Source: an uncultured virus (IMG/VR IMGVR_UViG_3300025368_000001)
Taxonomy: Duplodnaviria > Heunggongvirae > Uroviricota > Caudoviricetes
Direction: 5' to 3' (one strand)
Length of the DNA: 64,000 bases
IMG/VR virus record: IMGVR_UViG_3300025368_000001
Under the pieces are notes generated by a model. That model did no database searches. It had not been told where the DNA came from and saw nothing but the letters and a program-made list of their open reading frames with translations. Positions within the stretch are counted from its first letter, which is position 1. Each line of letters begins with the position of its first letter. The position numbers were made by a program, and so were the translations under genes. Below, piece after piece: positions 1 to 39,842 of this stretch.

Positions 1-1239
1 AATACAGCAAATATATTATTAAGAGTAAAGTATACAGATACAGCTACGATGTTAACTGCTTATCAATCAGCAATACTTTCAAGGGTAAAATATACTGATA
101 CGTCATCTATGCTTGCTGCTTATGCAAGTTCATTAAATGGAAAAGTAAAGTTTACCGATACGGCTAGTATGCTTACAGCTTATCAAACAGCTTTGAATAA
201 TAGAATAAAATATTCTGATAGTACTAAGTATATCACCCCTACTTATTTTAATGCTAATAAAGGGATTAGTTTATCTGCCATCTCAGCCACTACCCCTATG
301 ACATTTAACACTTCGACAGGAGTTATTGCGATTGGGCAGTCAACTACTAGCACAAATGGGTATTTGAGTAGTACAGATTGGAATAGGTTTGATGGGAAGC
401 TAAATATATCAGATACACTTACGATGTTAAATAATAGAATATCAGCTATTACTTTAAATAGTAGCGGTGTGATACATAATAGTCCTATTAATTTCGTAAG
501 AAGTGGAGGCGGATGGGTAGGGTCGATGTCATTAGTAACACAATCTGCTTATAAAGTCTTTTGGAATAATACAAATGCTTCTGCAACACCTAATTGGTAT
601 TCATTAGACAGTAACGCATTTGGAGGGAATTTTGCGGGACAGGTTAGAAATACTTTTTCCGCCACCCGTAACGTTTCCACAGGCTCAATCTTTACCTACA
701 ATAGTAGTGCAGGAGTGTATAATTTAGATACGACTAAATATCAACAGCCATTAGTAAGCGGAACGAATATTAAGACAGTTAATAGCAATAGTTTATTGGG
801 TAGTGGTGATGTTTCAGTTGGCACAGTTACTAGCGTTGCAACAGGCTTCGGATTAACAGGGGGAACGATTACTACAACAGGAACACTAAAAGTAGATAGT
901 GCGGCAGTACCTACTGTTACACAAACTTTCAGCCCTATTATTACCCTTACAGACGGCGCAACGATTACTTGGGACGCTACCTATGGCTGCAATGCTAAAG
1001 TAACACTTTCAGGGACGGGGCGAACGCTAACTATATCCAATGCAGTTGCAGGGCGAACATATCACTTAGACATCTACCAAGATGGAACGGGTAGCAGAAC
1101 AATCACCACATATACAAATTTAATCAGCCCAGCAGGGGTAATACCTGCACTAACTACAACGGCGAATGCAAGAGATGAGATATGTATGTTTTATGATGGT
1201 TCAAAATTTACAGCAATTTGGTTATTAAATGTAAAGTAA
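1..1239 (+). CDS. Tail fibre-like protein, 5' partial
   Basis: Frame is open from base 1; four 20-aa repeats (R/K)(V/I)K(Y/F)(T/S)D(T/S)xxML; S/T/G-rich shaft with GTVTSV and LVSGTNIKTVN fibre motifs; compact C-terminal LTDGATITWD...QDGTGSRTIT domain. Confidence 0.75.
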   Translation, partial: NTANILLRVKYTDTATMLTAYQSAILSRVKYTDTSSMLAAYASSLNGKVKFTDTASMLTAYQTALNNRIKYSDSTKYITPTYFNANKGISLSAISATTPMTFNTSTGVIAIGQSTTSTNGYLSSTDWNRFDGKLNISDTLTMLNNRISAITLNSSGVIHNSPINFVRSGGGWVGSMSLVTQSAYKVFWNNTNASATPNWYSLDSNAFGGNFAGQVRNTFSATRNVSTGSIFTYNSSAGVYNLDTTKYQQPLVSGTNIKTVNSNSLLGSGDVSVGTVTSVATGFGLTGGTITTTGTLKVDSAAVPTVTQTFSPIITLTDGATITWDATYGCNAKVTLSGTGRTLTISNAVAGRTYHLDIYQDGTGSRTITTYTNLISPAGVIPALTTTANARDEICMFYDGSKFTAIWLLNVK

Positions 1240-1973
1240 TGAGAGTATTAGTTTTCATATTGTTATTAATTGGCACGGCTAGCGCACAGCCTATGCGCTT
1301 CTTTACGGGAGCAATGGGGCAATATTCGCCTATTGTTAAAAATGGATTAGTTTGTTGGCTTGATGGTGGTAATTCAGTATCAGCAAACGGGGTGTCTAAT
1401 ACATGGCTTGACTTAAGTGGTAATAGTAATAATATATCATTATCTGGCAATACATTTAGCACATCTTATAACGGCTATTTTAGTTTTTCAAGTGCAAATA
1501 ATAGCTTAACTCTTAGTGGTAGTGGGTTATATCAAAACATAGCTACATTAATGGTGTGGCTATATTATACAACCTCACAGTATAGCCAAGTTATATATTT
1601 AGGAAATGCGGCAATTGCAGGGGTAGGTATTATTATTAATAATGGTTCTGGCGCAAGCGGTAATAAAGCTACGGTATTATTTGGGGGTAAAAGTTATAGT
1701 GCCGCAGGCTCAGTAACATTAACAGCTAACACATGGTATTGCCTAGCATTAAGTATAGCCAACACTCCGTTATGCTCATTTTATTCAAATACTACTTTAG
1801 TAGGCTCAACAACAACAGTACCTAATGGGGCAGGGGTTTATAGTACACAAATGGCTATGGCATCTCAAAATTTCACAGGTGGATTAGGTCAAGCACTAAT
1901 ATATAATAGGGCGTTATCATCAACTGAAATTACTCAAAATTACAACGCCACAAAAGGCAGATACGGATATTAA
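1239..1973 (+). CDS. LamG/concanavalin A-like jellyroll protein with signal peptide (putative receptor-binding protein)
   Basis: ATG overlaps upstream TAA; MRVLVFILLLIGTASA-Q signal; IVKNGLVCWLDGG, WLDLSGNSN and IYNRALSSTEITQNYNA motifs. Confidence 0.75.
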   Translation: MRVLVFILLLIGTASAQPMRFFTGAMGQYSPIVKNGLVCWLDGGNSVSANGVSNTWLDLSGNSNNISLSGNTFSTSYNGYFSFSSANNSLTLSGSGLYQNIATLMVWLYYTTSQYSQVIYLGNAAIAGVGIIINNGSGASGNKATVLFGGKSYSAAGSVTLTANTWYCLALSIANTPLCSFYSNTTLVGSTTTVPNGAGVYSTQMAMASQNFTGGLGQALIYNRALSSTEITQNYNATKGRYGY

Positions 1974-1986
1974 ACTTATAAATATT

Positions 1987-2337
1987 ATGAAAAAATTATT
2001 GTTATCATTATTAGTATTTGGGGCATTAAGCGTTAAGGCTCAAACAATAGACACAACCGTACATGAGTATAGTGCAGCGAAGATTGTAGACTACCTACAC
2101 GGCAACGGTTGCGTACCCGAAAGTATAGATACTATTAGGTGGGTAGGCTATGACGGATATACTTACCACTCAAAAGATAGTACTTGTGAAGTTAAATATA
2201 TCCTTCGTGCTAGTGACGGGCGCAATGTTATTCGCAATACTTACAACCTTTCAGCATCACAATATATCACTTGGGACGGTTCAGATATTGGGCTTATCGC
2301 AATAATAGTATCAGCATTACATTTAACCTTTAAATAA
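1987..2337 (+). CDS. Exported protein, possible fibre-associated chaperone or accessory
   Basis: MKKLLLSLLVFGALSVKA-Q signal peptide; follows the fibre genes. Confidence 0.55.
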   Translation: MKKLLLSLLVFGALSVKAQTIDTTVHEYSAAKIVDYLHGNGCVPESIDTIRWVGYDGYTYHSKDSTCEVKYILRASDGRNVIRNTYNLSASQYITWDGSDIGLIAIIVSALHLTFK

Positions 2338-2346
2338 AAAACAACT

Positions 2347-2571
2347 ATGGAAACAGGTATCAATTGGCAAGAGGTAGCAGCATTTTTAGTGATATTAACA
2401 GGATTGATTGGGTTTTATACCGCTACTCATGTAAGGCTAAACGGTCACGATATAAAGATTAAAGCATTGGAGGATAGAGAGGAAAAGACGGATACCCGTT
2501 TCGATAAGATTATGGATAAATTGGAAAGTATTTTATTGAAACTAGAAAACAAGCAGGACAAACATAATTAA
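2347..2571 (+). CDS. Holin-like small membrane protein
   Basis: One N-terminal TM helix plus a charged coiled-coil tail, at the start of the lysis region. Confidence 0.5.
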   Translation: METGINWQEVAAFLVILTGLIGFYTATHVRLNGHDIKIKALEDREEKTDTRFDKIMDKLESILLKLENKQDKHN

Positions 2572-2652
2572 ATGATAACCGCCTTAAAGATATTGTATGT
2601 ATTGTGCAGTATGTATGTGGGCTATTTAATAATTGATAATAAAACAAAAAAG

Positions 2653-2904
2653 ATGAAAAAGTTTTTAGGAGTTATGTTTATGTTACTTGTCGCTAGTTGT
2701 GGGTTAGCAATAGCGCAAGATAGTACCGCAGTTAATGTAGTTAAAGATTTACTACCTACAATCGAAGGTAAATTTACTTTCATTCCTTATGTATTAGGGG
2801 CATTGTTTGCAGTTAGTGAAGCACTTAGTTTTATCCCTTCTGTAAAGGCTAACGGTGTATTTCAGTTAGTATTTGGCTGGTTGAAAGCGGTACAAGGAAA
2901 ATAA
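2653..2904 (+). CDS. Holin-like membrane protein
   Basis: Probable start MKKFLGV; hydrophobic segment with ALFAVSEALSFIPSVKANGVFQL motif typical of small phage membrane proteins. Confidence 0.55.
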   Translation: MKKFLGVMFMLLVASCGLAIAQDSTAVNVVKDLLPTIEGKFTFIPYVLGALFAVSEALSFIPSVKANGVFQLVFGWLKAVQGK

Positions 2905-3056
2905 ATAGTAGTGGGTATGCCTCTCAAGTTGCTGACGGATAGAATCCCGATGACTTAGATGCACACTTTACCCACTCATGCCATTGTGGCTATACTGCCA
3001 TAATTAAAGCAAGCGTAACAGTTAGGCTTGTCGTGTGTGTACACATTCGGTAACAG

Positions 3057-3089
3057 CCCTCAATACCACTGGGTGTTGAGGGTACTTTT
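3057..3089 (+). terminator. Stem-loop, possible intrinsic terminator or processing hairpin
   Basis: CCCTCAATACC-ACTG-GGTGTTGAGGG followed by TACTTTT. Confidence 0.5.
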
Positions 3090-3102
3090 AAAACACTTAC
3101 AA

Positions 3103-3609
3103 ATGAAAAACTTCAAATTAGCCGTATTAGTAGCAGTCGTTTTATCTTTGCTTTATAGTTGCATGACAGACAGTAAGGCCTTACAAACAGTACTCACTAA
3201 AAAGCCGCTATTCGATACGGTCGGGAAAGTTTACACACAGTTGCATCCGTGTGACCCTATATCAATAGTACACCACAGCGATACAAGTTATTTACACGAT
3301 ACTTCGATTGTTACTTGCCACGATACTATTGGCAATTATATTCACGATACAACTACTATTACCCACACTAATACTATTCACATTCACGATAAAGATACGA
3401 TAGTAGACAACCAACAGATTAAAATACTCGAATCGCAAATTGAGAATAAGAATAAGCAAATAGCCGCACTTAATCAAGCGGTAACAGATAGCCGATTACA
3501 AGCAGCATCGAACGAAAAGGATGCTAGTAAGTGGGAGTTATACTTCTGGCTACTGATTGCAGCGATAGTAATTGCGTTGGTATTGTATATAATTAAACCT
3601 AGATTATGA
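3103..3609 (+). CDS. Putative unimolecular spanin
   Basis: Lipoprotein signal MKNFKLAVLVAVVLSLLYS-C, then coiled coil and C-terminal TM helix; lysis context. Confidence 0.65.
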   Translation: MKNFKLAVLVAVVLSLLYSCMTDSKALQTVLTKKPLFDTVGKVYTQLHPCDPISIVHHSDTSYLHDTSIVTCHDTIGNYIHDTTTITHTNTIHIHDKDTIVDNQQIKILESQIENKNKQIAALNQAVTDSRLQAASNEKDASKWELYFWLLIAAIVIALVLYIIKPRL

Positions 3610-3842
3610 GTAAAAAAGAAGCATACACAATAACGGGAGAACAATTAGATAGAATAAAATACTTTAAATCAATGTTTGAAATTAATGCACAAGAAATAAA
3701 AGATTTATGTTCTACTGAAAAATCAGACATTGAATATGGATTTGCTTTAGGTAGTGTTTATACGCATCTTAGAAAACATTATTTTGATATGGATGAACTT
3801 GTAGATGATATAATAATTAATAACTTAACTACTAAATCCTAA
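3606..3842 (+). CDS. Hypothetical protein
   Basis: 78-aa ORF with ATGA overlap. Confidence 0.6.
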   Translation: MSKKEAYTITGEQLDRIKYFKSMFEINAQEIKDLCSTEKSDIEYGFALGSVYTHLRKHYFDMDELVDDIIINNLTTKS

Positions 3843-3973
3843 GTTATGAATGAATACACAATAGTACAAAGTACAGGATTACCAATAACTGTTTTAGCAG
3901 TATCAATAATAGATGCAGTTAAAATAGCCGATAATGCAAATTCTGTTTATTCAACTTATATAGTTTACCAATA

Positions 3974-4270
3974 ATGACACTAAAACAACGCTACGAATCA
4001 ATCGCAACAGCATACTTAAATAAATTCATTAAGAAGCAGGACATAGATTTTGATGGATCGGTAAGTGATGATATTGGGGGCATTGCTTCTTTTTGTTGTC
4101 AGTACTTCTTTAGCCTTGACGATATACGCTACGATATAGATAATGAGTGTGAAGTAGGCTTAATACTTAGATGGCAAGAAGATGGAGTAGACCACCACAT
4201 GAAAGGAAATAGAGATACAATTAACTATCATTCATATCACAAGGGATTGAGGTATGAAGATTTAAAATAA
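3974..4270 (+). CDS. Hypothetical phage protein
   Basis: 98-aa ORF in operon. Confidence 0.65.
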   Translation: MTLKQRYESIATAYLNKFIKKQDIDFDGSVSDDIGGIASFCCQYFFSLDDIRYDIDNECEVGLILRWQEDGVDHHMKGNRDTINYHSYHKGLRYEDLK

Positions 4271-4274
4271 AGTT

Positions 4275-4736
4275 ATGAGACAAGTAAATAAACAAACGAT
4301 AGAATTAATAAAGCACTTCGAGGGGTTTTTCCCTAATGCCTACCACGATAGTATTGACCCGACCTCGATAGACACTATTGGCTATGGTTCAACAACTTAC
4401 CCCAATGGAACTAAAGTAAAAGTAGGTGACAAGACAATAACAGAGGCGCAAGCAATTGAATATTTAACCTTCGAGGTAAACCAAAAAGCGGTTGCCGTTA
4501 GTCATTTAGTTACCCCACAATTAACAGATAATCAGTTTGGGGCTTTGGTATCATTTGCATACAATTTAGGTGAGGGTAACCTATCCTCATCAACTCTATT
4601 AAAGAAAGTAAACGCTAACCCTAAAGACCCTGCTATTCAGCTTGAATTTGATAAATGGATATATTCTAACCACTTACCCGTTAAAGGTCTAGAAACACGC
4701 CGCAGAGCCGAATGGCAACTATATAACACAATATGA
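4275..4736 (+). CDS. Endolysin, GH24 phage lysozyme
   Basis: IKHFEG, TIGYGST, QFGALVSFAYNLG and GLETRRRAE motifs. Confidence 0.93.
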   Translation: MRQVNKQTIELIKHFEGFFPNAYHDSIDPTSIDTIGYGSTTYPNGTKVKVGDKTITEAQAIEYLTFEVNQKAVAVSHLVTPQLTDNQFGALVSFAYNLGEGNLSSSTLLKKVNANPKDPAIQLEFDKWIYSNHLPVKGLETRRRAEWQLYNTI

Positions 4737-4870
4737 TAATAGCCTACACCTTACTATTTTTATTCACTCTCATAGTTTCGTTTCTATGGGCTAACCTTAT
4801 TGATAATGCCCACCCCACCAATTAAATTCGAGCCGTTAAGGTTCATAAATACTTTACCTAAAAAGAAGAT

Positions 4871-6043
4871 ATGCCTAACACCGAAGAAAAAGAAGTTAAA
4901 ACAAAGGGGCAACAGATAAAGGAGTATTATCTGGCTAATCAATCGGAAGGCTACGATAGTATCGCCGAAAGGTTTAAAAGTACTAAGGCTTTTATAGCCA
5001 AGTGTATTAGCGAACTTCGCAAAGAGGGTAAACTACCTAAGTTAGAAGAAGGGTATAGGCAAAAGAAAACGATTGAAGAAAAGCACGTTGCACTTGCAGA
5101 GGAATGCGAAAATAGCGGTATTCCGTTTGACAGCGTTAAACATGGATGGTACAAAGGAGAACACTTTAGTTTGTTCTTTAATAAGCAAGTAACGTGGGAG
5201 GATTTAAAAGAAGAAATAGTTAACGAAGTTAAGCAATATGCACCCAAATACCCTAATATACTTTACCCACAATACGAAGATGCACATCTATTAGTTATAG
5301 ACCCTGCTGATATTCACATAAACAAACTATGTAGTGCCTTTGAAACGGGGGATGAGTACAATATAGAAATAGCAGTTACAAGGGTTAAAGAGGGGATAAT
5401 GTCGCTATTAAATAAGGTGCGCTTTTATAATGTAGATAAAGTACTTTTAATAATTGGTAATGATATTCTACACACGGATAACCCACAAAGCACGACAACA
5501 GCAGGGACTAGACAAGATACTCAAGTTATGTGGTATGATGCTTTTATGATAGCTAAGAAATTGATTATTTGGGTAATAGAAACACTTTCAACTATCGCAC
5601 CTACGCAAGTCGATTACAACCCGTCTAATCACGATTATATGACGGGTTTTCTTTTGGCACAAACTTTAGAGGCATGGTTTTCAAAGTGCGAACATATTAC
5701 TTTTAATGTAGGGATGGCTCACAGAAAGTATTTTGTTTACGGACAAAACCTTATTGGAAGCACTCACGGGGACGGCGCAAAAGAAACTGATTTAGCGTTA
5801 CTGATGGCACACGAAGCAGGTGAAAATTGGTATAAATGCAAACATCGTTATTACTATACTCATCATATTCACCACAAAAAAAGCAAGGATTATATGAGTG
5901 TTACCGTTGAAAGTATGCGAAGCCCAAGCGGGGCGGATAGTTGGCACGCTCGCAATGCTTTTCAATATGCACCCAAAGCAATAGATTGTTTTTTACATCA
6001 TCCTACACAAGGACAGATAGGAAGATTCACCCATTTATTTTAA
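4871..6043 (+). CDS. Calcineurin-like metallophosphoesterase with N-terminal HTH-like region
   Basis: ADIH, GNDILH, SNHD, HGD and HHIHH metal-binding motifs. Confidence 0.8.
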   Translation: MPNTEEKEVKTKGQQIKEYYLANQSEGYDSIAERFKSTKAFIAKCISELRKEGKLPKLEEGYRQKKTIEEKHVALAEECENSGIPFDSVKHGWYKGEHFSLFFNKQVTWEDLKEEIVNEVKQYAPKYPNILYPQYEDAHLLVIDPADIHINKLCSAFETGDEYNIEIAVTRVKEGIMSLLNKVRFYNVDKVLLIIGNDILHTDNPQSTTTAGTRQDTQVMWYDAFMIAKKLIIWVIETLSTIAPTQVDYNPSNHDYMTGFLLAQTLEAWFSKCEHITFNVGMAHRKYFVYGQNLIGSTHGDGAKETDLALLMAHEAGENWYKCKHRYYYTHHIHHKKSKDYMSVTVESMRSPSGADSWHARNAFQYAPKAIDCFLHHPTQGQIGRFTHLF

Positions 6044-6047
6044 CATT

Positions 6048-6230
6048 ATGACCCCAATAGAAAAAAGACTACTAGAATGTAATATAGCCCCAACAGAGCC
6101 GCTAATTAACTTGCTAAAGAATATGATGGCAATTGGCTACGCAACCGCTTGTATGGGCATCTCTACCACCACACTAGAAGATTTGCAGCGTGATTGGTTT
6201 AGCGAAGAAAAGAAGAAAGTTAGTAACTGA
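6048..6230 (+). CDS. Hypothetical protein, paralog of the next gene
   Basis: MTPIEKRL..PT..LI.L.K..M..GY.TA pattern shared with 6244..6453. Confidence 0.6.
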   Translation: MTPIEKRLLECNIAPTEPLINLLKNMMAIGYATACMGISTTTLEDLQRDWFSEEKKKVSN

Positions 6231-6243
6231 AACAAATACAACT

Positions 6244-6453
6244 ATGACTAAAGCAGAAAAGCGATTAAAAAAGATAGGTTATAATCCTACGTTTATGCTT
6301 ATTGAATTAATGAAGGAGTGCATGGAATTAGGTTACGATACGGCTATTAAAATGTCACGAATAAGAAAGGATAGTTTGATTAAGCAATGGTTTGAGGATG
6401 ACCTTAAAAAGATAGCAAAAGAACGTGCAGAGAATTATATGAATTTGCCGTAA
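6244..6453 (+). CDS. Hypothetical protein, paralog of the previous gene
   Basis: MTKAEKRL..PT..LIELMKECMELGYDTA. Confidence 0.6.
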   Translation: MTKAEKRLKKIGYNPTFMLIELMKECMELGYDTAIKMSRIRKDSLIKQWFEDDLKKIAKERAENYMNLP

Positions 6454-6590
6454 TATCACCCAATAATAGTAATTTTGATAATGTATTAACAAAATTACTA
6501 TCAAAATTGATAATTAAATGGTTACTATTCGGAAAATATCCGAGATGCTTATTAAAATATGGCAAGTAAAATGCGCAGAATAGTCGACAT

Positions 6591-6624
6591 AAAAAAGCCC
6601 CTGTTAAAAAACAGAGGACTTTTT
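6591..6624. terminator. Bidirectional intrinsic terminator
   Basis: A6 tract, GCCCCTGTT/AACAGAGGAC stem, T5 tract. Confidence 0.7.
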
Positions 6625-6756
6625 GCGGCTTGATAAGACCAAACGGGTAAAACCAAGTCGGCTTAAATAAAAGACTTGACCAGTAAGCTGTTCTAATGGT
6701 AAGCTGCCAAGTACTGTTGGGGCAAATATAATCATTTATAAACTATCTTTGTGATT

Positions 6757-7563
6757 ATGAAAAAACTATTTAAAGACGGAGAAGCAGAAAGAGTAACCGT
6801 ACGAGTAAACAAGGTAATAAAATTAAAAGCAATTATAGGCAAAGTGTTTAAGCATACGCCTAAGTCGTTGGTTCTGTTTACCATCTTGGTGGCATCAACG
6901 TTATGGTCGTGGGGGCAACACACGATAGAAATTAAGCATAAATACTATACGGTGCAATTTGATACGGCATTTTGTCAAGGGATACTTAACCACTACACAC
7001 AAACTATTGCGCATCATAATAGCCCTAAATTAAAGCGTGAAGGTAGTTTATTAACCGAGTTCCATAAAGACCAGTTAATACCCTCTAAATGGCAAACGGT
7101 AAGTAAGTCCGACTATGCGAACTACAATAAGAAATACAAGGGAGATAAACATAATACTGTTGACATCGGGCATATAATCCCATACCAATCTATGTCTTTC
7201 GATAGTATAGCAGCAGAGGAAACTATGATGTTTTCTACTAATACAGCCTTTCAAATATCGTGGTTCAATGAGCAACAATGGAAGAATATAGAGGCGATAG
7301 TGTTTGATAGTATTGGCAGTAAGTATGATTGTGAAGTTTACACTGGGGTATTAATCAGCACTTCACACCCACATAAGTACAACCAAGTTTATATAGCGGA
7401 TTATTATTTTAAAATAGTCAAATTCGACCACTTAACTTTGGCGTGGTTAGGGTTAAATAGTCCTACCAATACAAGCACTAAGCCAAGCGATGCAGCTATT
7501 TCTATTGATAAACTAAAAGCTATTATCTTACAGTATTATCCTCAAATTAAACTGCCTTTTTAA
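6757..7563 (+). CDS. DNA/RNA non-specific endonuclease (NucA-like), probably exported
   Basis: DIGH and FNEQQW motifs; hydrophobic SLVLFTILVASTLWSWG-Q segment; start codon uncertain. Confidence 0.75.
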   Translation: MKKLFKDGEAERVTVRVNKVIKLKAIIGKVFKHTPKSLVLFTILVASTLWSWGQHTIEIKHKYYTVQFDTAFCQGILNHYTQTIAHHNSPKLKREGSLLTEFHKDQLIPSKWQTVSKSDYANYNKKYKGDKHNTVDIGHIIPYQSMSFDSIAAEETMMFSTNTAFQISWFNEQQWKNIEAIVFDSIGSKYDCEVYTGVLISTSHPHKYNQVYIADYYFKIVKFDHLTLAWLGLNSPTNTSTKPSDAAISIDKLKAIILQYYPQIKLPF

Positions 7564-20523: not shown

Positions 20524-21234
20524 ATGGCAGTTGATATTGAAAAATATCTAAGGGTTTTAAAGAGTAGGGGCATCACTAAAGGAGATGTTGCTGCCGCTTT
20601 GAGCATAACTCCTTCATATTTATCAAAAATTATCAGTAACGAAAAGCCACTGACTGATACTATACTTAAAAACCTTACAGCAGAATTTGGCAGCTATGAA
20701 GAAGTGGTAGACAAAACCCCTCCTGAGCCATACTACCGAAAAAGACTTGAATTAAAAAACACCGAAAATCCTCGAACCGTGAAATTGTATAACTCTAGTG
20801 TGGCAGCCACGCCGAAAGCCGGAAACGGAATGGCAGTTACAAACAAAACAGACTATGTAAACATCTATGACGTATTGGGTAAATGTGACTTCGCTTTGCC
20901 TGTAAGTGGGAATAGTATGATGCCTAATTATCCACCTTCTAGTGTGGTCGGAATGGTAAAGAAAACAGATTGTAAAATAAGACCAGGAGAAGTCTATGTA
21001 GTGGAAACGGCTGACGAGGCTGTACTGAAAAGACTATACTACAAAGAAGATGATAGTAACAGCGAAATACTTGTTCTGATCTCAGATAACACTATGGTAA
21101 TTGATAGCGGTGCCAGAAAAGGGATGTTAGCCTATCCGCCTTATGAATTACACATAAAAGATATAATAGGGCTGTATAGCGTCACCGGAAGCGCAAAGAT
21201 TATGTTGTATGGTAAAAGGATGATTGAATTATAA
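20524..21234 (+). CDS. CI-like repressor (XRE HTH + S24 peptidase)
   Basis: ITKGDVAAALSITPSYLSKII; VSGNSMMP (catalytic Ser); VLKRL (catalytic Lys); LISDN. Confidence 0.9.
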   Translation: MAVDIEKYLRVLKSRGITKGDVAAALSITPSYLSKIISNEKPLTDTILKNLTAEFGSYEEVVDKTPPEPYYRKRLELKNTENPRTVKLYNSSVAATPKAGNGMAVTNKTDYVNIYDVLGKCDFALPVSGNSMMPNYPPSSVVGMVKKTDCKIRPGEVYVVETADEAVLKRLYYKEDDSNSEILVLISDNTMVIDSGARKGMLAYPPYELHIKDIIGLYSVTGSAKIMLYGKRMIEL

Positions 21235-21243
21235 ACTATCAAT

Positions 21244-21489
21244 ATGAAAAAGAAACTTACTTACGGCGTATGCGCAATCATTCTGCTACTCGTTCTGACA
21301 AACCCCACCATGAGGGATTTTAAGGAGAATCAGGGTATAGTAAATGATGTTATGACATATACTACTCAAACGAATAAAGAATCGAATTTCTTGCTGTTTA
21401 GCGTGTTCGCAACAAATCATTATTTGAACAACCACGATGTAAGAGTAAAATATATCGGCATCTTAAAAAACTTTTGGAAAATAAACTAA
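21244..21489 (+). CDS. Membrane-anchored protein (DUF4359-like); immunity-region accessory
   Basis: N-terminal TM plus TNP, NFLLFSVF and YIGILKNF motifs. Confidence 0.6.
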   Translation: MKKKLTYGVCAIILLLVLTNPTMRDFKENQGIVNDVMTYTTQTNKESNFLLFSVFATNHYLNNHDVRVKYIGILKNFWKIN

Positions 21490-21494
21490 ATATT

Positions 21495-21791
21495 ATGACA
21501 CAACCATTCGGCGAACTACTTAAAAAGTACAGAGAAAACAACGGTTTAACTCAGATAGATTTAGCTGAGAAGCTGGGCGTTACGCAACAAAGTATTGTGT
21601 ATCTAGAGAATAGGGATTACGTTAAACCTTCAACCAAAAAGGATATTGAAGAAAAGATTGGCTTTAATCTCGATTCATTGCTTCCGGGTAACAGCGCTTT
21701 TAAAGATGCAAAATACTATCAGAAACAAGCGATAATTTACAAAGAAATGCACGACCATTGTACAAAGATGGCTAAACTGTTGGGAGGGTAG
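21495..21791 (+). CDS. XRE-family HTH regulator
   Basis: GLTQIDLAEKLGVTQQSIVYLE. Confidence 0.85.
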   Translation: MTQPFGELLKKYRENNGLTQIDLAEKLGVTQQSIVYLENRDYVKPSTKKDIEEKIGFNLDSLLPGNSAFKDAKYYQKQAIIYKEMHDHCTKMAKLLGG

Positions 21792-22220
21792 CTATGCAAG
21801 TTTACCCTCTCTCCTTAATTGAGTGTATCTCTCTTGCAATTTTTTATCTCTAGCCGTTAGTTTACTTTTTCTTACTATTCTTTCCATACGGGTTTCAACT
21901 TTCTTTTTAGGTTTATTGGGGTTCTTCTTTTTTCTAGTACGTCTTTTATTGGGCAATATCGGGGCGTACTTTATTTTATCGCTACCAATATTATGTTCTT
22001 TTTGGTGACAAGGACGGCAAAGCGTTATTAAATGCTTATCGGGGCTTTCCCACGCCATTTTACCTTTTATATATTTTTTGTGGTGGATTTGTAGCCTTGT
22101 TTTATTCCCACATTTTTTGCAAGTGTAATTATCCCTCTCTAGTATTTGTAATCTCCTAGCTTTCCATTCAGGAGTTAGTAATTGTTCTTTATAGGTTAAA
22201 CCTTTTTTTACTTCTGTCAT
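21792..22220 (-). CDS. HNH endonuclease with basic C-terminus
   Basis: ERDNYTCKKCG, LQIHH and LITLCRPCH motifs; encoded on the minus strand (track label is wrong); TACTTTTG promoter at 22228-22235 implies a near-leaderless mRNA. Confidence 0.85.
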   Translation of the reverse strand: MTEVKKGLTYKEQLLTPEWKARRLQILERDNYTCKKCGNKTRLQIHHKKYIKGKMAWESPDKHLITLCRPCHQKEHNIGSDKIKYAPILPNKRRTRKKKNPNKPKKKVETRMERIVRKSKLTARDKKLQERYTQLRREGKLA

Positions 22221-22280
22221 AGCATAACAAAAGTACAAGTAAAAACAAATAAAAAACAATCTTTTGGCTGTATTTTCTTT

Positions 22281-23402
22281 TTAATTCAATCTATCCATAA
22301 TCTTTTTACTCAAATCAATATTGCTTATCTTGGCGTATATTCTAGCCGTCTGAGGCGTATCCCCCAACATTTCTGCAACTTCATCTACCGTAAACCCTTT
22401 TGACATCATCATCATTGCAAATGAATGTCGGGCGGTATGGAATTTCACATTCTTGTTAATCCCTGCCAGCTTTGCAATCGCTTTAACGTGTTCCCGAACC
22501 TTTTGTTCCGATTCAGTCATTTTATTCTTGGATACATATTCGAGTATTGGCACTAACTTGTTGTAAATAGGGATAGAAACGATTTTGCCGTTTTTTTTAG
22601 CCTGTAAAGTAACTTGGTTATCCATTACCCTTTTACTTACATCGAACGTCAAACAATCGCTTATCCTATACCCTAAGTAGCAAGATAGCAAGAAGTAATA
22701 CCCTGCGTTTCTCATTTCGGGAATATTAACCCCGGCTACTACCTTCTCGAAGTTTGCCACCTCTTCTTCAGTAAGATAGTCCGGCATCGTCCTTTCAGAT
22801 TTAGGGTTGATGTATTTTCTGAACGGATCATCTTTGATATAATCCTTTTTCATAGCATGGTTTATAATAGCCTTTAGGAGTGCCATATTCCCCTTTAAAG
22901 TGTTCCGAACTATTCCTGTATCCATTAAGTATCTTTCAAAGGAAATTACCCACTTATAATCAATTTCTGCAAGCCTGGTCCTATCGTCATAATCCTTTAC
23001 TTTGTCGGACATAACTTTATAATGTTTTAGCCGTCCTTCTGATAACTTCCCTGTAAGCTCTTGAATTAAGTCCTCAATGAAGTTTGTTAGTAGTCCAGAT
23101 GAAGTGTCTATACTATCGCCGGAAACAATTTTCTTTAGTATCTTCTCGGTGATAGGTATATCCTTTCGCATACACTCTAAAATATTACTTTCGATATTGT
23201 TTGCAATCGACTTTATGATGGCGTTTAACTTCACCTTTTCTTTATGCCAAACTACATTCCCGTTCTTGAAATTATCGGTAGGGAGTTTGATGCCAGTGGC
23301 CTTGTACGCCTTTAGTTTGTTGTTAATTACCTGAATTGAAATGCCGTGACAGCCGTTTTTGTCGGCATAACCCATTAGAATAGGCTTGACTGAATATCCC
23401 AT
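22281..23402 (-). CDS. int: Tyrosine integrase (Arm-DNA-binding + SAM-like + catalytic domains)
   Basis: GYRISD, K, HTARHSFA, LGD and IYAK catalytic motifs; Bacteroidota-type N-terminus. Confidence 0.95.
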   Translation of the reverse strand: MGYSVKPILMGYADKNGCHGISIQVINNKLKAYKATGIKLPTDNFKNGNVVWHKEKVKLNAIIKSIANNIESNILECMRKDIPITEKILKKIVSGDSIDTSSGLLTNFIEDLIQELTGKLSEGRLKHYKVMSDKVKDYDDRTRLAEIDYKWVISFERYLMDTGIVRNTLKGNMALLKAIINHAMKKDYIKDDPFRKYINPKSERTMPDYLTEEEVANFEKVVAGVNIPEMRNAGYYFLLSCYLGYRISDCLTFDVSKRVMDNQVTLQAKKNGKIVSIPIYNKLVPILEYVSKNKMTESEQKVREHVKAIAKLAGINKNVKFHTARHSFAMMMMSKGFTVDEVAEMLGDTPQTARIYAKISNIDLSKKIMDRLN

Positions 23403-33593: not shown

Positions 33594-33598
33594 GGGGT

Positions 33599-33844: not shown

Positions 33845-33850
33845 CAAACA

Positions 33851-34243: not shown

Positions 34244-34260
34244 TATTAAATCGGATTATT

Positions 34261-34915: not shown

Positions 34916-34917
34916 TT

Positions 34918-35193
34918 ATGAGTGATTTTTTTTACAAGCCTTTGCACGAAAAGGTATTAGTACTTCCTAAAGAAAGGGATACAAAAACAAGTGGCGGCAT
35001 TATTAAAGTTGCTGACGATGCCAACATCCCGGATTATGGGGTGGTAGTAGCTGTGTCTGATTTAGTAGACTACATAAAGTTGGGGGATACTGTTATGTAT
35101 GAGCACGGTGCGGGCAAGCCCATTGTGCTGCAAGATAAAAAGTATGTGTTGTTAGATTGCAGTCAACATGGAAGTGTATTAGGGATAGTTTAA
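34918..35193 (+). CDS. groES: Co-chaperonin GroES-like protein
   Basis: KPLHEKVLV..KTSGGII..GVVVAV..IKLGDTV. Confidence 0.85.
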   Translation: MSDFFYKPLHEKVLVLPKERDTKTSGGIIKVADDANIPDYGVVVAVSDLVDYIKLGDTVMYEHGAGKPIVLQDKKYVLLDCSQHGSVLGIV

Positions 35194-35582
35194 TACCCCA
35201 ACTCACTAAGTTTAATCATTGGTTTTTTATTATAAGTCAGATTGATAGCATTAAGTATCAGTCTGGCTTTTGTCATTATACGCTTAGGCAACTCTGACCC
35301 TTCTGCAAACGCATCATTCTTTTCGGCAGCATCTTCCCATTCGTACGCTTTCTTGAAGGTGTTCAGGTGGCGGGTGTATGCAACACGCTCGATGCCGATG
35401 TGCTTTCTGATTTCGTTGTCGGTAAAACCATTCATGTGCGCCACACCTGCAAAAACGACCATGCCGATTGTCGTCTCGGTGTTGGTGCTGCCAGAGGCGT
35501 TTACCACATTCCATTGCCTGCCAGGTGCTTTGTCCCACAAGAATTGCGGGCGTGTCAGTTCTTCAAGTTGCTGTAGTGTCAT
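35190..35582 (-). CDS. Putative DNA-binding protein (HTH-like)
   Basis: GFTDNEIRKHIGI helix; transcribed divergently from the tail operon. Confidence 0.55.
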   Translation of the reverse strand: MTLQQLEELTRPQFLWDKAPGRQWNVVNASGSTNTETTIGMVVFAGVAHMNGFTDNEIRKHIGIERVAYTRHLNTFKKAYEWEDAAEKNDAFAEGSELPKRIMTKARLILNAINLTYNKKPMIKLSELGY

Positions 35583-35842
35583 TTGCTTTTATTATGTTTT
35601 TGTAATGGTGACAATCCTTCTTCACGCAAAGCCCTCAACGTAAGATGTTCCTCCACCCCGAACGTCCTGAAAAGTTTGCCCCAATCGTATGTGTAGACCA
35701 AGGCATCGCCTACTTTATGTGAACCCACTTGGAAACGGAGGCAAAAAGTCGGTTGCGTATCAAGCAAAAACCTCCTTATCTCGTCCAAATTAAACGACTT
35801 ACGGTGGATACAAATAGTATTTGAGGCAAAATTAACCCTCAT
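35579..35842 (-). CDS. Hypothetical protein
   Basis: 87-aa ORF with TAAATTTG promoter at 35859-35866. Confidence 0.55.
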   Translation of the reverse strand: MRVNFASNTICIHRKSFNLDEIRRFLLDTQPTFCLRFQVGSHKVGDALVYTYDWGKLFRTFGVEEHLTLRALREEGLSPLQKHNKSK

Positions 35843-35932
35843 TGTTGTTATGTTTCAGCAAATTTACAAGTATATGTTTGTATTTGGGTTAATTTTACAA
35901 ATATTTCGTTTGTAAGCTGCCACTTTTGTGCT

Positions 35933-36802
35933 ATGGTTACTACGAACTCGATATTTGTTACGGTAGATAAGGCATTAAATGATGAAATTGTTACCAATGG
36001 TGGCATAAAGTTTTATATAGACCCAACATATAACCCTGAGTGGAACGTATCTGTAACGGGGAAAGTAGCGGCTATACCGAAATACATAAAAGGCTCAAAC
36101 TCAGCCAAGTTGGCAAGATTGAAAGAGGGAGATGAAGTCGCATTTGATTACTCGGTAATCAGCGAAATGAAGTTTAATGAAAACCCTGAACTATACCAAG
36201 AAACTTTAGATGTACCGGGAAGTTTAAAAAGATTTGAGAACTCTAAAGGTAAAATGATTTCAATATTTTGCTATGATGGGGCTATTTCTAAAAGATGGGG
36301 TTGCTCGCTATACGATAAAAATAGCCGTACTATAATTGATGGAAGGGACAATATCAACGAATCAGAGAAAGACAGATGGCTTGCACAATTTCACTTTGGT
36401 GGCGTGCAGGATTTTAGATTTAAGAACTTACTAGAAATAGAAAGTAAAAAATCAGGTACCGAAATACAAACCGATGATTATTGGAATGTTAGTATGGATA
36501 ATATTCTTGCTATTAAAAAAGGTGATGACGTAGTATCTGTTTCTAACTATGTTATTGCTACTCCTTTAATGGTAGATGCTACTTCATCTTATAACTTTCA
36601 GAATGGCGTTATGCTGCCTCCAATGAGTGTATGCTTTGAATTAACAGACAGGGCTGAGGTTGCATCCGATTATCCTGAACTGGGATTAAAAAAAGGCGAT
36701 ATAGCTTCTACTGAAGAAATGTATATATGCAGATATGATTTGTGGGGTAAAAAGTATTTCCTAATCAATAAAAACAGGATACTAGGCACATGGCACAAAT
36801 AA
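35933..36802 (+). CDS. Protein with GroES-like domains
   Basis: TNGGIKFYID..TGKVAAIP..LKEGDEVAF and a second GLKKGDIA module. Confidence 0.6.
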   Translation: MVTTNSIFVTVDKALNDEIVTNGGIKFYIDPTYNPEWNVSVTGKVAAIPKYIKGSNSAKLARLKEGDEVAFDYSVISEMKFNENPELYQETLDVPGSLKRFENSKGKMISIFCYDGAISKRWGCSLYDKNSRTIIDGRDNINESEKDRWLAQFHFGGVQDFRFKNLLEIESKKSGTEIQTDDYWNVSMDNILAIKKGDDVVSVSNYVIATPLMVDATSSYNFQNGVMLPPMSVCFELTDRAEVASDYPELGLKKGDIASTEEMYICRYDLWGKKYFLINKNRILGTWHK

Positions 36803-37476
36803 ACGAGATACATGATTTTATTCACCTTATCGAAAGAAAGGAACGGGGCGGGTTCACATCCGATGCCGAGATAGATATGTACCTCGACAGGGCGCAAATG
36901 GAGTGCTTTACGGAGTACTTTAAGCAATACGGGAATACGCAGATTGTACATGATGCACTTACTATCTTCAAGGTGACATGGGCGTTTAGCTATGTAGACT
37001 GCCCCAATGGCTTGTTGAACTACCCAGACGGGTACACACACCTTTTAGGGTTATCAGTTATAGGCTACGACAATGCCACATCGGCACAGACTTTCAATGA
37101 GGTAAGGTACATGAATGAAAATCAGTTGGCTAATGCTGTAAAAAGCGCATTACGCAAACCAACTGTTACTGCCCCTATTGGAGTCGATAAAGGTTCAAGC
37201 GATGCCAATGGTAACTATGAGATTTACACTCAGATATACCCGAAAGTGCCGTATGCGGGCGAGATGATTTATCTAAGGAGACCTGCAAAGCCTAAGTATG
37301 GCTTTACGCAAAGCGGAAGAACGATTACTTATGATCCAACAACAAGTGTTCAGTTAGAATGGACGAATACTTATGTGTCGAAGATTATTGGCAGGGCGAT
37401 GATGTACTTAGGATTGAATATGGATGAAAAGGATTTTATCGAATTTGGTGCAATGGAAGCAAATAAAATACAGTAA
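36790..37476 (+). CDS. Tail ring/adaptor protein (crAss-like)
   Basis: EIDMYLDRAQ, YLRRPAKPKYGF and YDPTTSVQLE motifs; position in tail module. Confidence 0.7.
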   Translation: MAQINEIHDFIHLIERKERGGFTSDAEIDMYLDRAQMECFTEYFKQYGNTQIVHDALTIFKVTWAFSYVDCPNGLLNYPDGYTHLLGLSVIGYDNATSAQTFNEVRYMNENQLANAVKSALRKPTVTAPIGVDKGSSDANGNYEIYTQIYPKVPYAGEMIYLRRPAKPKYGFTQSGRTITYDPTTSVQLEWTNTYVSKIIGRAMMYLGLNMDEKDFIEFGAMEANKIQ

Positions 37477-37886
37477 TGCCTACAAGTAAAAGGAAATTAG
37501 CGGAACAAGTGCTTTATCGTCTTTACGGCGGTGTGAATACATCATCTTCACCTGTACAGATTGAGGATGTGTATGAAGCGATTAATCAGAAGATAAATGC
37601 TTTGATTAAGGCGGAAGTGTTTTCTGTTACTCTGGCTAGTGGCGATACAATACCGGAAGGGTTAATGACCGCTACTTACGAAAATATTCCTGTTGTACCG
37701 TATGGTAAAAGAAGCAAAGCTATTTTACCTGCCATGCCTGTAAGATTACCTCGTAATATGGGTGTGTTTGAGATATGGAATGATACAATTTCTGATGGGT
37801 TTGACACAGAAATGCCTGTTAATTACTTGCTTACTGAAGATAGAATTGATATTACAACAGAAGATGGGAAAATTATAACAACATAA
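37476..37886 (+). CDS. Tail protein, N-terminal part, with C-terminal LLTED..ITTEDG extension
   Basis: LPAMPVRLPRNMGV motif; see finding on the split gene. Confidence 0.65.
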   Translation: MPTSKRKLAEQVLYRLYGGVNTSSSPVQIEDVYEAINQKINALIKAEVFSVTLASGDTIPEGLMTATYENIPVVPYGKRSKAILPAMPVRLPRNMGVFEIWNDTISDGFDTEMPVNYLLTEDRIDITTEDGKIITT

Positions 37887-37895
37887 AATTAAAAG

Positions 37896-39842
37896 ATGAA
37901 AAAAGGGTTATTTGTTTTGATGGCTTTATGCCTAAGTTTTTATGGTAAATCGCAGATTGCTATTTCTGCTTTACCAACTTATACCGGCAGTGTTAATGGG
38001 GGCTATGTACCTATTGTAATTGGAGGTGTTACTAAAAAAGTAGATGGTAGTAAACTAGGTCAGGTTACTGATTCTTTAAGAATACCATATTTAAGTAAAA
38101 ATAATGTTTTTACAGGAGTAAATACTTTTCCGGCAATAGTTTTAGCAAGCGGTGGTAGTGATACAGTTGCAACTAAATCGTACGCTAGAAGTATAACAGA
38201 AGGTAAATTAATAGATAGTACTAGGATACCATACCTTACAAAAAACAACGCTTTTACGGGTAATAATACATTTCCCAATATAAACGTAAGTAACAATAAC
38301 GATGCAAGTGGGTTATCAATAAATGGAGATATTACTACAATAGGAGATATTAACAATAATGATGCAGGAACTACCCTATCAATAGACGGGCATTATAATA
38401 CATTGACAATAAATGGTCTTTGGGGGTTTACTAGCGGGCAATCAGTATCATCAATATCTACCGATACCGCAATGACAAGTAATTCAAATGCAATATTACC
38501 TACTCAAAAAGCAGTAAAGTCGTATGTTTTGAATCATCAGGGAAGTGGTGGCGGAAGTGGTTACCAAACTACTGCGAATTTGTCTAATGACGGCACAATG
38601 GCTGCAAATTCAGTAACTTTGTATCCTTCCCAGCAAGCTACCAAAACCTATGCAGATGGGTTAGTAGTAGGTTTATTAAATGATAGAGGTAATTATAATG
38701 CTAGTGGCAATGTTTACCCGTCAACTGGCGGAAGTGGTACGTCAGGCGCAATTAAAAAGGGGGATTTATGGTATATAAGTACAGCAGGTACTTTAGGGGG
38801 CGTATCGGTAGTTGTAGGTTCTTCTATTAGAGCTTTAACAGATGCGCCGGGGCAAACTTCAGCTAATTGGAATGTATTGAATGTTGGATTAGGATATACG
38901 CCCGAAAATTCAGCTAATAAATCAAATTTATTAGCAAGTGATAGTTCTAGCACAGTTAAATATCCAACAGTTCAATCAGTAGGAAGATATGCACAAGCGT
39001 TAAGTAATTTATCGAATAATCTAACTACTGATAGTGCATCCACGACAAAGTACCCTAGTGTACAAGCTATTACAAGATTTGTAAAAGCGAATAGTGGAGT
39101 AATTCCTTTAGTCTCTTACCAATTATCTGTTACAGGTACTAATTATTCAAATTCTAATCTAATCCCTACAAATTTTACTCAGATATACGGTAGTGGTAAT
39201 TCAGTAAAATTGCCTAATAACCCACCAAGTGGTACACAGATATATATAGCTTCTGCGATAGATTGTAATATATATTCTTTTGATAATTCAACTAATATTA
39301 TTTATGGGACGTATCAAAGTCAACAATCATTAAAAAGTGGCAATTATTATCTTTTTACTTTTATAGATAATGATTTTGGTTGGAAAATGCAACTTATTGA
39401 TGATAATACAATTCAATTAAACGCAAATTTATCGAATAATATAATAGCAGATAGTGCGAGTACTACCAAATATCCTAGTGTAAATGCAGTAAAGAATTAT
39501 GTCCAAGCAAATTCTTCGTCATTACCATATACAGAGTATGCTTGTTTAATAACGCAAGTTAGTACGTCAGCCCCCGTATTAACAGTATTGAATAATAATA
39601 CAGGCGGCACTTTTACAGCAACAAGGCTATCTTCTGGCTTATACAGTATAACATTTAGCGGTATATCCACTAGCACATCTAAAATGTTACCGATTATATC
39701 TTGCAATAATGCGTCAGGATTAATTGTGAGTGCATATAGTTATACATCAACAATAGTTCGTATTAAGTCTTTAAATTTAAGCGGAATTCCTTCAGACGAC
39801 ACGTTAACCAATACTCCTTTTTTCTTGCGCATTTACCCTTAA
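37896..39842 (+). CDS. Tail fibre-like protein with signal peptide
   Basis: Signal MKKGLFVLMALCLSFYGKS-Q; ISALP..VPIV..TKKV anchor; repeats RIPYL.KNN.FTG.NTFP (x2) and N.SN....DS.ST.KYP (x3). Confidence 0.75.
   Translation: MKKGLFVLMALCLSFYGKSQIAISALPTYTGSVNGGYVPIVIGGVTKKVDGSKLGQVTDSLRIPYLSKNNVFTGVNTFPAIVLASGGSDTVATKSYARSITEGKLIDSTRIPYLTKNNAFTGNNTFPNINVSNNNDASGLSINGDITTIGDINNNDAGTTLSIDGHYNTLTINGLWGFTSGQSVSSISTDTAMTSNSNAILPTQKAVKSYVLNHQGSGGGSGYQTTANLSNDGTMAANSVTLYPSQQATKTYADGLVVGLLNDRGNYNASGNVYPSTGGSGTSGAIKKGDLWYISTAGTLGGVSVVVGSSIRALTDAPGQTSANWNVLNVGLGYTPENSANKSNLLASDSSSTVKYPTVQSVGRYAQALSNLSNNLTTDSASTTKYPSVQAITRFVKANSGVIPLVSYQLSVTGTNYSNSNLIPTNFTQIYGSGNSVKLPNNPPSGTQIYIASAIDCNIYSFDNSTNIIYGTYQSQQSLKSGNYYLFTFIDNDFGWKMQLIDDNTIQLNANLSNNIIADSASTTKYPSVNAVKNYVQANSSSLPYTEYACLITQVSTSAPVLTVLNNNTGGTFTATRLSSGLYSITFSGISTSTSKMLPIISCNNASGLIVSAYSYTSTIVRIKSLNLSGIPSDDTLTNTPFFLRIYP

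Follow-up and report, generated by a model that had tools for sequence, protein, structure and literature searches.

The stretch of DNA analysed here (the window) is 64,000 nucleotides long and comes from an uncultured tailed virus (IMG/VR record IMGVR_UViG_3300025368_000001); the 64 kb seen make up a nearly complete genome of a temperate tailed phage. Four of its genes begin with a predicted leader of the Sec pathway that is followed by Gln. They encode a tail-fibre protein (gene 37896), a LamG/concanavalin-like lectin-fold protein, a protein of 116 amino acids (aa) from open reading frame (ORF) 1987, and a non-specific DNA/RNA endonuclease. As shown in Table 1, the fibre gene is located inside the tail module, and the other three genes are found around the lysis genes at the beginning of the window, downstream of a truncated second fibre gene. 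The original prediction, made from the sequence of the window, held that this phage exports its fibres to the periplasm, where host enzymes may glycosylate them before they are attached to particles at lysis. Our analysis indicates that fibre-like host-recognition proteins of this phage probably mature outside the cytoplasm.

Leaders of the four proteins

A leader was called when a net positive n-region preceded a 9-residue uncharged core with a mean hydropathy of at least 1.7, and small residues were present at positions -3 and -1. The five N-termini quoted in the original prediction were all present in the sequence as written, and four of its five leader calls were upheld, namely those of fibre 37896, the LamG protein, ORF 1987 and the nuclease. 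For ORF 2653, the remaining one, the second helix of a membrane protein is the better description (see below). Each of the four accepted leaders has an n-region of the MKK type and an uncharged hydrophobic core, with small residues at -3 and -1; all four (4/4) have Gln at +1. Leader-like N-termini were found in 9 of the 91 likely genes of the window, 5 of the 9 with Gln at +1 after a compliant site, and in 17 of the 149 other ORFs of at least 45 aa, 2 of the 17 with Gln at +1. Gln accounts for 4.1% of the residues in the likely genes. No lipobox with Cys at +1 was seen in the four proteins; the only one was that of the spanin-like protein 3103 (LYS↓C, the arrow marking the predicted cut). Type IX secretion cargo was considered and rejected, as eight proteins gave no TIGR04183- or TIGR04131-type NCBIfam match at E <= 1 and no Pfam match.

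Substrates of signal peptidase I (SPI) with Gln at +1 follow a Q-rule that is specific to Bacteroidota (PMC5837995). The four leaders resemble Q-rule substrates in their tripartite structure, in the small residues at -3 and -1 and in Gln at +1; the papers on this rule deal with cellular proteins, whereas the cargo here is a phage fibre, a lectin and a nuclease with predicted cleavage (PMC5837995, PMC10653852).

The leader of fibre 37896 comprises residues 1-19 (nucleotides 37896-37952), and the N-terminus reads MKKGLFVLMALCLSFYGKS↓QIAISALP, with predicted cleavage at GKS↓Q. Behind the leader come an N-terminal anchor of the ISxLP type, two D(S/T)xRIPYL..NxFTG repeats, a widely conserved central domain (residues ~225-345) and a beta-rich C-terminal domain. 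All five full-length homologs of the fibre (42-55% identical, on contigs of up to 82 kb) carry a leader and start with MKK, a hydrophobic core and G(K/I)SQ, and residues M1, K2, K3, G17, S19 and Q20 are invariant in 6/6 fibre sequences. The anchor behind the leader is of one of two types, ISxLP...TKK (that of the window) or TDxQL...IKNET, and each was also found without a leader. In alignments of both anchor types with leaderless homologs (P0107 for the ISxLP type), the leader forms a 17-residue insert after Met1, and the predicted cut falls at the first anchor residue. For the TDxQL type, MKKVILLVLLGLVYFEGKS↓QLTDAQL aligns with MSQLTDIQL of contig G005 and MSQKTDAQL of P0080; likewise, the insert is seen when MKKVILLVLLGLVYFEGKSQLTDAQL is placed against M-SQLTDIQL and M-SQKTDAQL. 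Among the 119 listed fibre homologs (the window's own excluded), 17 bear a leader, 16 of them with Gln according to the rule set.

The AlphaFold model of the fibre had a mean predicted local distance difference test (pLDDT) score of 59 and was confident only in the central and C-terminal domains. A BFVD fold search with this model gave 25 matches at E <= 1e-3, with proteins annotated as tail fibres or structural proteins at E = 3e-14 to 6e-8, among them an uncultured Caudovirales fibre (3e-14), Flavobacterium phage lotta8-1 (3e-8) and Olleya phage Harreka_1 (6e-8). Against the PDB, the fibre gave no sequence match at E <= 1 and no fold match at E <= 1e-3, and no Pfam or PHROG family was assigned.

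The second fibre is cut by the edge of the window. Its homolog in contig G002 (818 aa, 80% identical over residues 276-412) starts with MKKLLIILSLFISLNSFG↓Q, so the partial fibre of the window is probably leader-bearing too. The ATG of the LamG gene overlaps the stop codon of the partial fibre gene by one base, and the leader of the G002 LamG homolog ends in ...VANA↓QPMRFF. The LamG protein was only found alongside a fibre with the C-terminal domain of the window type, in the window and in G002.

Four sequences of the ORF 1987 family were compared. M1-K3, A18, Q19 and I21-D22-T23-T24 are kept in 4/4, so that an IDTT sequon stands invariant (4/4) two residues past the predicted cut. The family always comes after the large leader-bearing fibre in four contigs (homologs in L003, L004 and L037), and a C-terminal ...LTFK is conserved as well. 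The AlphaFold model of ORF 1987 (pLDDT 54) was too poor for a fold search.

In the nuclease, the h-region corresponds to residues 39-55 of the longest ORF, with cleavage predicted at ...TLWSWG↓QHTIE. Only with a start at the GTG at 6844 is the leader canonical; in the longest ORF it is preceded by a 38-residue extension. The nuclease of L043, 93.5% identical in the mature part, carries another leader, MKQLYLLFSWLLIVVNCQA↓QHTIQ (...VVNCQA↓QHTIQ), with the same junction. The N-terminal extension (6751-6866) is conserved in G002 as MKKLFKDGE(A/S)ERVTVRVNKVIKLKAIIGKVFKH and is swapped for a plain leader in L043 (19892-20596); the L003 copy of the gene lies at 20819-21574.

Export of the proteins, as read in the original prediction, is strongly supported, because the leaders are conserved, are inserted at an exact domain boundary and obey the Q-rule. 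From these sequence features, fibre 37896, the LamG protein, ORF 1987 and the nuclease are very probably exported by Sec.

Table 1. Genes and features of the window (positions in nucleotides; arrows mark predicted cuts)
Feature	Position	Strand	Remarks
Second fibre, C-terminal 412 aa	1..1239	+	start outside window; about four 20-aa repeats (R/K)V/IK(Y/F)(T/S)D(T/S)..., with D-S/T built in
LamG/concanavalin-like lectin-fold protein, 244 aa	1239..1973	+	PF13385, 37.6 bits (cut-off 27.6); predicted leader residues 1-16, from ATG at 1239: MRVLVFILLLIGTASA↓QP (ASA↓QP)
ORF 1987, predicted exported protein, 116 aa	1987..2337	+	fold unknown; predicted leader residues 1-18, MKKLLLSLLVFGALSVKA↓QT (VKA↓QT)
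74-aa protein, one hydrophobic helix	2347..2571	+	candidate holin or antiholin by hydropathy
Multi-helix holin-like membrane protein, 110 aa	2572..2904	+	
Unimolecular-spanin-like protein	3103..3609	+	lipoprotein leader LLYS↓C and C-terminal membrane helix
Endolysin (phage lysozyme)	4275..4736	+	leaderless; PF00959, 117.6 bits; phrog_7, 1.7e-41
Predicted exported non-specific DNA/RNA endonuclease	6751..7563	+	PF01223, 71.3 bits (cut-off 23)
CI-like repressor	20524-21234		
Tyrosine integrase	22281-23402	minus	
Structural (tail) module	35933..47064	+	35933, 36790, 37476, fibre, 39855, 40190, muzzle-like 40960, 44495, 45175
Tail-fibre protein, 648 aa	37896..39842	+	
Large terminase	55801		
Portal	58778		
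Likely capsid protein	62419		by homology to G005 and position
Primase/helicase, SSB, GroES-like protein			also encoded in the window

Fibre 37896 in the tail module

The gaps that separate gene 37896 from its neighbours are 9 bases (from the stop codon of 37476) and 12 bases (to 39855); downstream of 39855 lie 40190 and the muzzle-like gene, with one-base overlaps. The genes of the tail module other than the fibre gene carry no leader. Matches to PHROG families annotated as virion structural protein were obtained for 36790, 40190 and 40960. The muzzle-like protein 40960 (1174 aa) matched phrog_14478 at 7.7e-57 and was 25% identical to gp114 of Cellulophaga phage phi18:3; with the C-terminal domain of the crAss muzzle (PF25729) it reached 21.3 bits (E = 3.7e-4, cut-off 27).

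The tail module is syntenic with those of G005/L005 and L007, and in L007 a fibre is found beside the same gene family. At the locus of gene 37896, G005 encodes a leaderless fibre of 309 aa, 57% identical over 161 aa. No leaderless fibre-like gene was found in the 64 kb seen. The G005 homolog of 37476 (L005 6549-7472) has 307 aa with two extra C-terminal repeats of ~90 aa that look fibronectin-III-like by eye; the window protein (37476-37886, 136 aa) is without these repeats. A complex prediction of three copies of anchor residues 20-100 with 37476, 39855 and 40190 gave a score of 0.45, and one of 0.55 once chain 3 had been swapped for an unrelated protein, which speaks neither for nor against binding. 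Because fibre 37896 is encoded in a tight structural operon and at the locus of the leaderless G005 fibre, we lean slightly towards its incorporation into virions.

Recurrence in other contigs

The original prediction had proposed a survey of leader-bearing fibres in related phages. The pattern recurs in six contigs: G002 (78.7 kb), G003 (62.7 kb), G004 (49.7 kb, complete by CheckV), G005, L037 (69.3 kb) and L043 (72.4 kb). In each of the six, 3-5 consecutive fibre or lectin genes with a leader and Gln are located directly upstream of the lysis genes; these runs include fibres of 642-879 aa, the LamG protein and the ORF 1987 family.

The fibre, lysis and nuclease genes of the window were compared with those of G002 and L043, and the endolysin was 89%, ORF 3974 84-88% and the nuclease 61-94% identical. 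ORF 6190 was 93% identical when positions 1-7563 of the window were compared with L003 and L043. The structural genes of G002 and L043 showed no or weak similarity to those of the window, and therefore the cassette moves between backbones. Judged by these comparisons, the fibre-lysis-nuclease cassette is a mobile late-gene module.

Enrichment of O-glycosylation sequons

The sequon of the general O-glycosylation system of Bacteroidota was defined as D-(S/T)-(A/I/L/V/M/T), and expected numbers refer to composition-based chance. The sequon counts of the original prediction were exact: 7 in fibre 37896, 6 in the partial fibre, 3 in ORF 1987, 4 in the spanin, 0 in the LamG protein and 3 in capsid protein 62419. 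The nuclease has 3 sequons. The LamG protein contains only ~1% Asp. Expected numbers for fibre 37896 and the partial fibre were 2.6 and 2.2, respectively, and in composition-preserving shuffles the observed counts had P values of 0.0085, 0.012, 0.015, 0.0125 and 0.025 for fibre 37896, the partial fibre, ORF 1987, the spanin and the nuclease, respectively.

The composition-corrected comparison that had been suggested was in favour of the prediction: as Table 2 shows, the exported set of the window had a ratio of 3.29 and the other proteins one of 1.29, and the Poisson probability of the excess was 8e-7. Seven control tripeptides, with Asn, Glu or Gly for Asp, other third residues, the motif reversed, or Ala/Gly or Asn/Gln in the middle, gave ratios of 0-1.9. 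The enrichment in G004 and G005 is largely independent evidence, because their exported proteins are mostly unrelated in sequence to those of the window. Leaderless fibre homologs were at 1.05, and therefore the fibre fold is no explanation of the excess.

Table 2. Sequons observed and expected in sets of proteins
Set	Observed	Expected	Ratio
Window, exported set	24	7.3	3.29
Window, exported set without ORF 2653	23	7.2	
Window, other proteins of at least 100 aa	54	41.9	1.29
G002, exported set	24	8.6	2.78
G003, exported set	18	4.9	3.65
G004, exported set	14	4.5	3.14
G005, exported set	16	5.3	3.01
G002-G005, other proteins of at least 100 aa			0.77-1.43
Leaderless fibre homologs (102)	351	333.4	1.05
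All leader-bearing fibre homologs (17)	52	58.9	0.88
Close leader-bearing homologs (5)	26	~12.5	~2.1
Distant leader-bearing homologs (12)	26	~46	~0.56
phi18:3 gp085-087	3	9.6	~0.3

A 2025 review states that the sequon occurs above chance in noncytoplasmic proteins of Bacteroidota, that the sites are generally occupied nearly in full and that an engineered motif becomes glycosylated (PMC12871550). The ~3-fold motif excess in the exported sets of five phages resembles this general O-glycosylation system (PMC12871550, PMC8550257); it differs in that the distant leader-bearing homologs and phi18:3 are not enriched and the LamG protein is without sites. Taking the motif excess as a guide, it is reasonably likely that the host O-glycosylates the exported proteins.

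Relatives, phage phi18:3 and the host

G001, the nearest record, reaches just 143 bases further upstream than the window. The nearest complete relative is G005 (71.3 kb), whose capsid protein, portal and terminase are 29-32%, 33% and 34% identical to those of the window, respectively. In G005, two genes (~300 and ~390 aa) separate the capsid gene from a leader-bearing fibre, and thus ~3-4 kb of the phage should lie beyond the window.

A distant cultured relative is Cellulophaga phage phi18:3 (NC_021794, Pachyviridae). It resembles the window in its temperate-type genome, with a tyrosine recombinase, a repressor and two GroES-like genes, and its terminase (26% identical), portal (23% identical), gp113 and gp114 are distant homologs of 55801, 58778, 40190 and 40960 of the window, respectively. 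In phi18:3, gp085, gp086 and gp087 (547, 785 and 559 aa) have leader and Gln starts (...FGYS↓Q, ...GVSA↓Q and ...GLNA↓Q, respectively) and are located directly upstream of the lysis genes. The RefSeq note "annotation based on experimental MS/MS proteomics analysis" (MS/MS, tandem mass spectrometry) is attached to 12 of the 123 phi18:3 coding sequences, among them gp085, gp086 and gp087; the small leader-bearing proteins gp044, gp095 and gp119 are without it. The record classes gp085-087 as structural on this basis. The proteomics work is reportedly that of Holmfeldt et al. (2013, PNAS). We found no paper that mentions the leaders of gp085-087. The phage differs from that of the window in that gp085-087 show no BLASTP similarity (E <= 1e-3) to the leader-bearing proteins of the window or of G002-G005 and are poor in sequons, and in that its tail module is without a fibre.

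The central domain of the fibre was found in two Flavobacterium genomes. In the phage collection, a megablast of 36000-48000 and a tblastn of the fibre at 1e-5 gave no match; with the threshold at E <= 1, the tblastn matches of the fibre were weak and partial, and 70 of 78 were in phages of Flavobacterium or Olleya. Where such matches fell in Olleya phage Harreka_1 and Flavobacterium phage elemoE, the fibre-like proteins there carry no leader. Because the leaders obey the Q-rule, and because of the genomes with the central domain, the tblastn matches and the kinship to a Cellulophaga phage, the host is probably a member of the Bacteroidota, and Flavobacterium-like. This evidence is indirect; neither a host genome nor a CRISPR link was found.

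Lysis cassette and other features of the window

ORF 2653 (...GLAIA↓QD) was rejected as an SPI substrate. It is nested in ORF 2572-2904, and its supposed leader is best read as the second hydrophobic helix of the longer protein. The 27-residue N-terminal extension of ORF 2572-2904 includes the first hydrophobic helix, and the homologs of L043 and L037 share this extension, with K6, Y9, M14, G17, I21, N23 and K24 invariant in 3/3 sequences. The homolog stretch aligned to the supposed leader, MSKLFSVGLQDFLHGLLIAV, is not leader-like. By this alignment, ORF 2653 is probably helix 2 of a holin-like membrane protein. ORF 2572-2904 has a possible dual start (Met1 and Met28, MKKF...), and the short form has a lipobox-like VAS↓C.

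The 74-aa protein at 2347 gave no family match; its L037 homolog is 47% identical. The sequons of the spanin-like protein are in its periplasmic part, and the spanin homologs of G002, L037 and L043 have a lipobox of the form ...G↓CM(S/T)DR. The endolysin is without a leader, and therefore lysis requires a holin.

The lysogeny module (20524-23402) contains the CI-like repressor, a helix-turn-helix regulator, an HNH endonuclease and the tyrosine integrase, in a phage whose tail, with a muzzle-like protein, may be of the crAss type; phi18:3 likewise has a tyrosine recombinase and a repressor. A candidate exclusion or immunity-region membrane protein, which may be expressed by the prophage, is encoded at 21244-21489. 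Two GroES-like genes are present, one for a 91-aa Cpn10 (34918-35193, PF00166) and one for a 289-aa protein that matches a GroES PHROG over its first 88 residues (35933-36802); such a pair is also present in phi18:3 (gp080 and gp096). A giant protein of 2561 aa is encoded at 47064-54749, with positional counterparts in G005 (1881 aa) and phi18:3 (gp123, 1935 aa); it gave no Pfam or PHROG match, and a regular-expression search of it found no DxDGD-type motif. Between the terminase and portal genes, an ORF of 134 aa on the minus strand (58255-58659) matches phrog_5154 at 4e-44, a family of unknown function, and has the look of an inserted gene. A tRNA scan of the window found no gene.

Discussion

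In textbook accounts of tailed phages, all parts of the virion are made and joined in the cytoplasm, and we know of no tailed dsDNA phage that routes its fibres through Sec and the periplasm. A literature search of openly accessible article text (PMC6199706, PMC5723332, PMC12946066 and PMC12309495 among others) turned up no account of tailed phages whose tail fibres bear Sec leaders. A parallel is offered by filamentous phages, whose pIII and pVIII are Sec-leader virion proteins that meet the DNA-containing particle only at or beyond the inner membrane (PMC4823517); these phages differ from the phage of the window in being non-lytic single-stranded DNA phages assembled by extrusion.

For the phage of the window, the following route can be proposed. 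The late structural and lysis operons would be expressed, and the fibres, the lectin, ORF 1987 and the nuclease would be threaded into the periplasm by Sec. SPI would cut before Gln, and a host glutaminyl cyclase would convert this residue to pyroglutamate. The proteins would fold in the periplasm and would probably be O-glycosylated at D-(S/T)-(A/I/L/V/M/T) by the general system of the host, while capsid and tail are put together in the cytoplasm. Once the holin has opened the inner membrane, the compartments would mix, the fibre would dock on the particle through its N-terminal anchor, whose first residue would be the new N-terminus, and the nuclease would be released at the same time. The anatomy of the leaders, their conservation and modular insertion and the sequon excess are seen in the sequences, whereas cleavage, pyroglutamate, glycosylation and, above all, docking at lysis are in this scheme inferred steps. 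For the full two-compartment model, with docking upon holin opening, we consider the chances to be about even. More broadly, the whole recognition set (two fibres, a lectin and a small partner) may be exported by Sec, capped by pyroglutamate, coated with O-glycans and added after holin opening, in a cassette that is passed on whole among phages of one host group with unrelated backbones; this is a tentative proposal, to which we give somewhat less than an even chance.

Several observations weigh against periplasmic maturation as we read it. The leader calls rest on our own rule set, not on SignalP. Since the G005 fibre at the same locus is leaderless, the fibre family, as judged from this comparison, also works by the ordinary cytoplasmic route, and the unseen ~3-4 kb could hold a leaderless fibre. 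A poorly resolved quick tree of the central domain requires five changes of the leader label, only one of which is forced by well-supported branches, so that repeated gain of the leader is not supported by this tree. Both the 12 distant leader-bearing homologs and phi18:3 gp085-087 have fewer sequons than expected (ratios of ~0.56 and ~0.3), and a family-wide link between leader and sequon density was rejected (0.88 for leader-bearing and 1.05 for leaderless homologs, Mann-Whitney P = 0.86). Part of the excess in the window fibres is in repeats, D(S/T)xRIPYL, DSASTTKYPS and (Y/F)TDTA, each present twice; sequons in repeated motifs are not independent sites. The virion evidence from phi18:3 is record annotation, and exported proteins could co-purify with particles. 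The glycosylation reading in the original prediction has statistical support in this phage group from a sequon-specific, ~3-fold enrichment, which is no general trait of leader-bearing fibres.

The alternative that survives best is that the leader-bearing proteins are exported accessory proteins, never part of the virion, with a function in the periplasm or once they have been released. By binding or cutting receptor or newly made surface polysaccharide, for example, they might block adsorption of progeny or superinfecting phage to the cell and its debris, and the nuclease would clear DNA at lysis. Such proteins would resemble Llp of phage T5 or free depolymerases. T5 Llp is phage-encoded, exported by Sec and located beside receptor-binding genes. 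The cassette travels with lysis genes among otherwise dissimilar phages, G005 has a leaderless fibre in its tail module plus a separate leader-bearing cluster, and a leader-bearing 376-aa protein of G004 looks like a beta-helix depolymerase, though by eye only. The LamG protein, ORF 1987 and the nuclease gave no virion-type family match, except for a likeness of the LamG C-terminus to domains of large structural proteins, and an accessory role is more likely for these three than for fibre 37896. A precedent is Lom of lambda, which is phage-encoded and leader-bearing and has its gene between the tail-spike and fibre genes (PMC12309495). Lom is an outer-membrane beta-barrel and Llp a small lipoprotein, and neither is fibre-like or part of the virion, whereas the exported proteins of the window are built from fibre modules, one of them inside the tail operon. 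Moreover, at the locus where G005 has its leaderless tail-module fibre, the window has fibre 37896 instead, with no other fibre in the 64 kb seen, the leader of fibre 37896 ends exactly where a virion-type N-terminal anchor starts, and three large leader-bearing proteins of phi18:3 are annotated in particles by MS/MS. The proteins also have neither a lipobox nor a type IX secretion domain for delivery to the surface. We regard a purely accessory role as possible but rather unlikely.

A second alternative is that the hydrophobic N-termini are not used for export, either because translation starts further in or because they serve as a transient membrane tether or assembly element, with the fibres assembled in the cytoplasm. 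In public gene call P0002 (640 aa), Met9 is taken as the start of the fibre, more than one start is possible for the nuclease, and one leader call, ORF 2653, truly was a membrane helix. However, a start at Met9 still encodes most of the hydrophobic core, only 9 bases lie between the upstream stop codon and the ATG at 37896, and M1-K2-K3, G17, S19 and Q20 are invariant in 6/6 homologs. Gln at +1 and sequon enrichment are traits of exported Bacteroidota proteins that unused N-termini do not explain, and we consider this alternative very unlikely. The least probable is the one offered in the original prediction, that lysogen surface or conversion proteins are expressed by the prophage and displayed on the host: the phage is temperate, with an integrase and a CI-like repressor, but the genes lie in late operons with one-base overlaps and gaps of 9-13 bases far from the immunity region and not in the loose, isolated arrangement of a lysogenic-conversion gene, the proteins are built from tail-fibre modules, and no lipobox, no type IX C-terminal domain (E <= 1) and no hint of a beta-barrel was found in them.

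If periplasmic maturation of the fibres is true, tailed phages would have a second assembly route, with late docking after holin opening. Their receptor-binding proteins would be blocked at the N-terminus and bear glycans of the host type, which could change stability, protease resistance and recognition by the host or by the immune system. For the fibres to function, the host would have to provide Sec, signal peptidase I, glutaminyl cyclase and the O-glycosylation locus, all of which would be new host factors for resistance screens. Expression of such receptor-binding proteins in the cytoplasm of E. coli would yield the wrong product for host-range work, and pipelines that treat a leader as evidence against a role in the virion would misfile these proteins.

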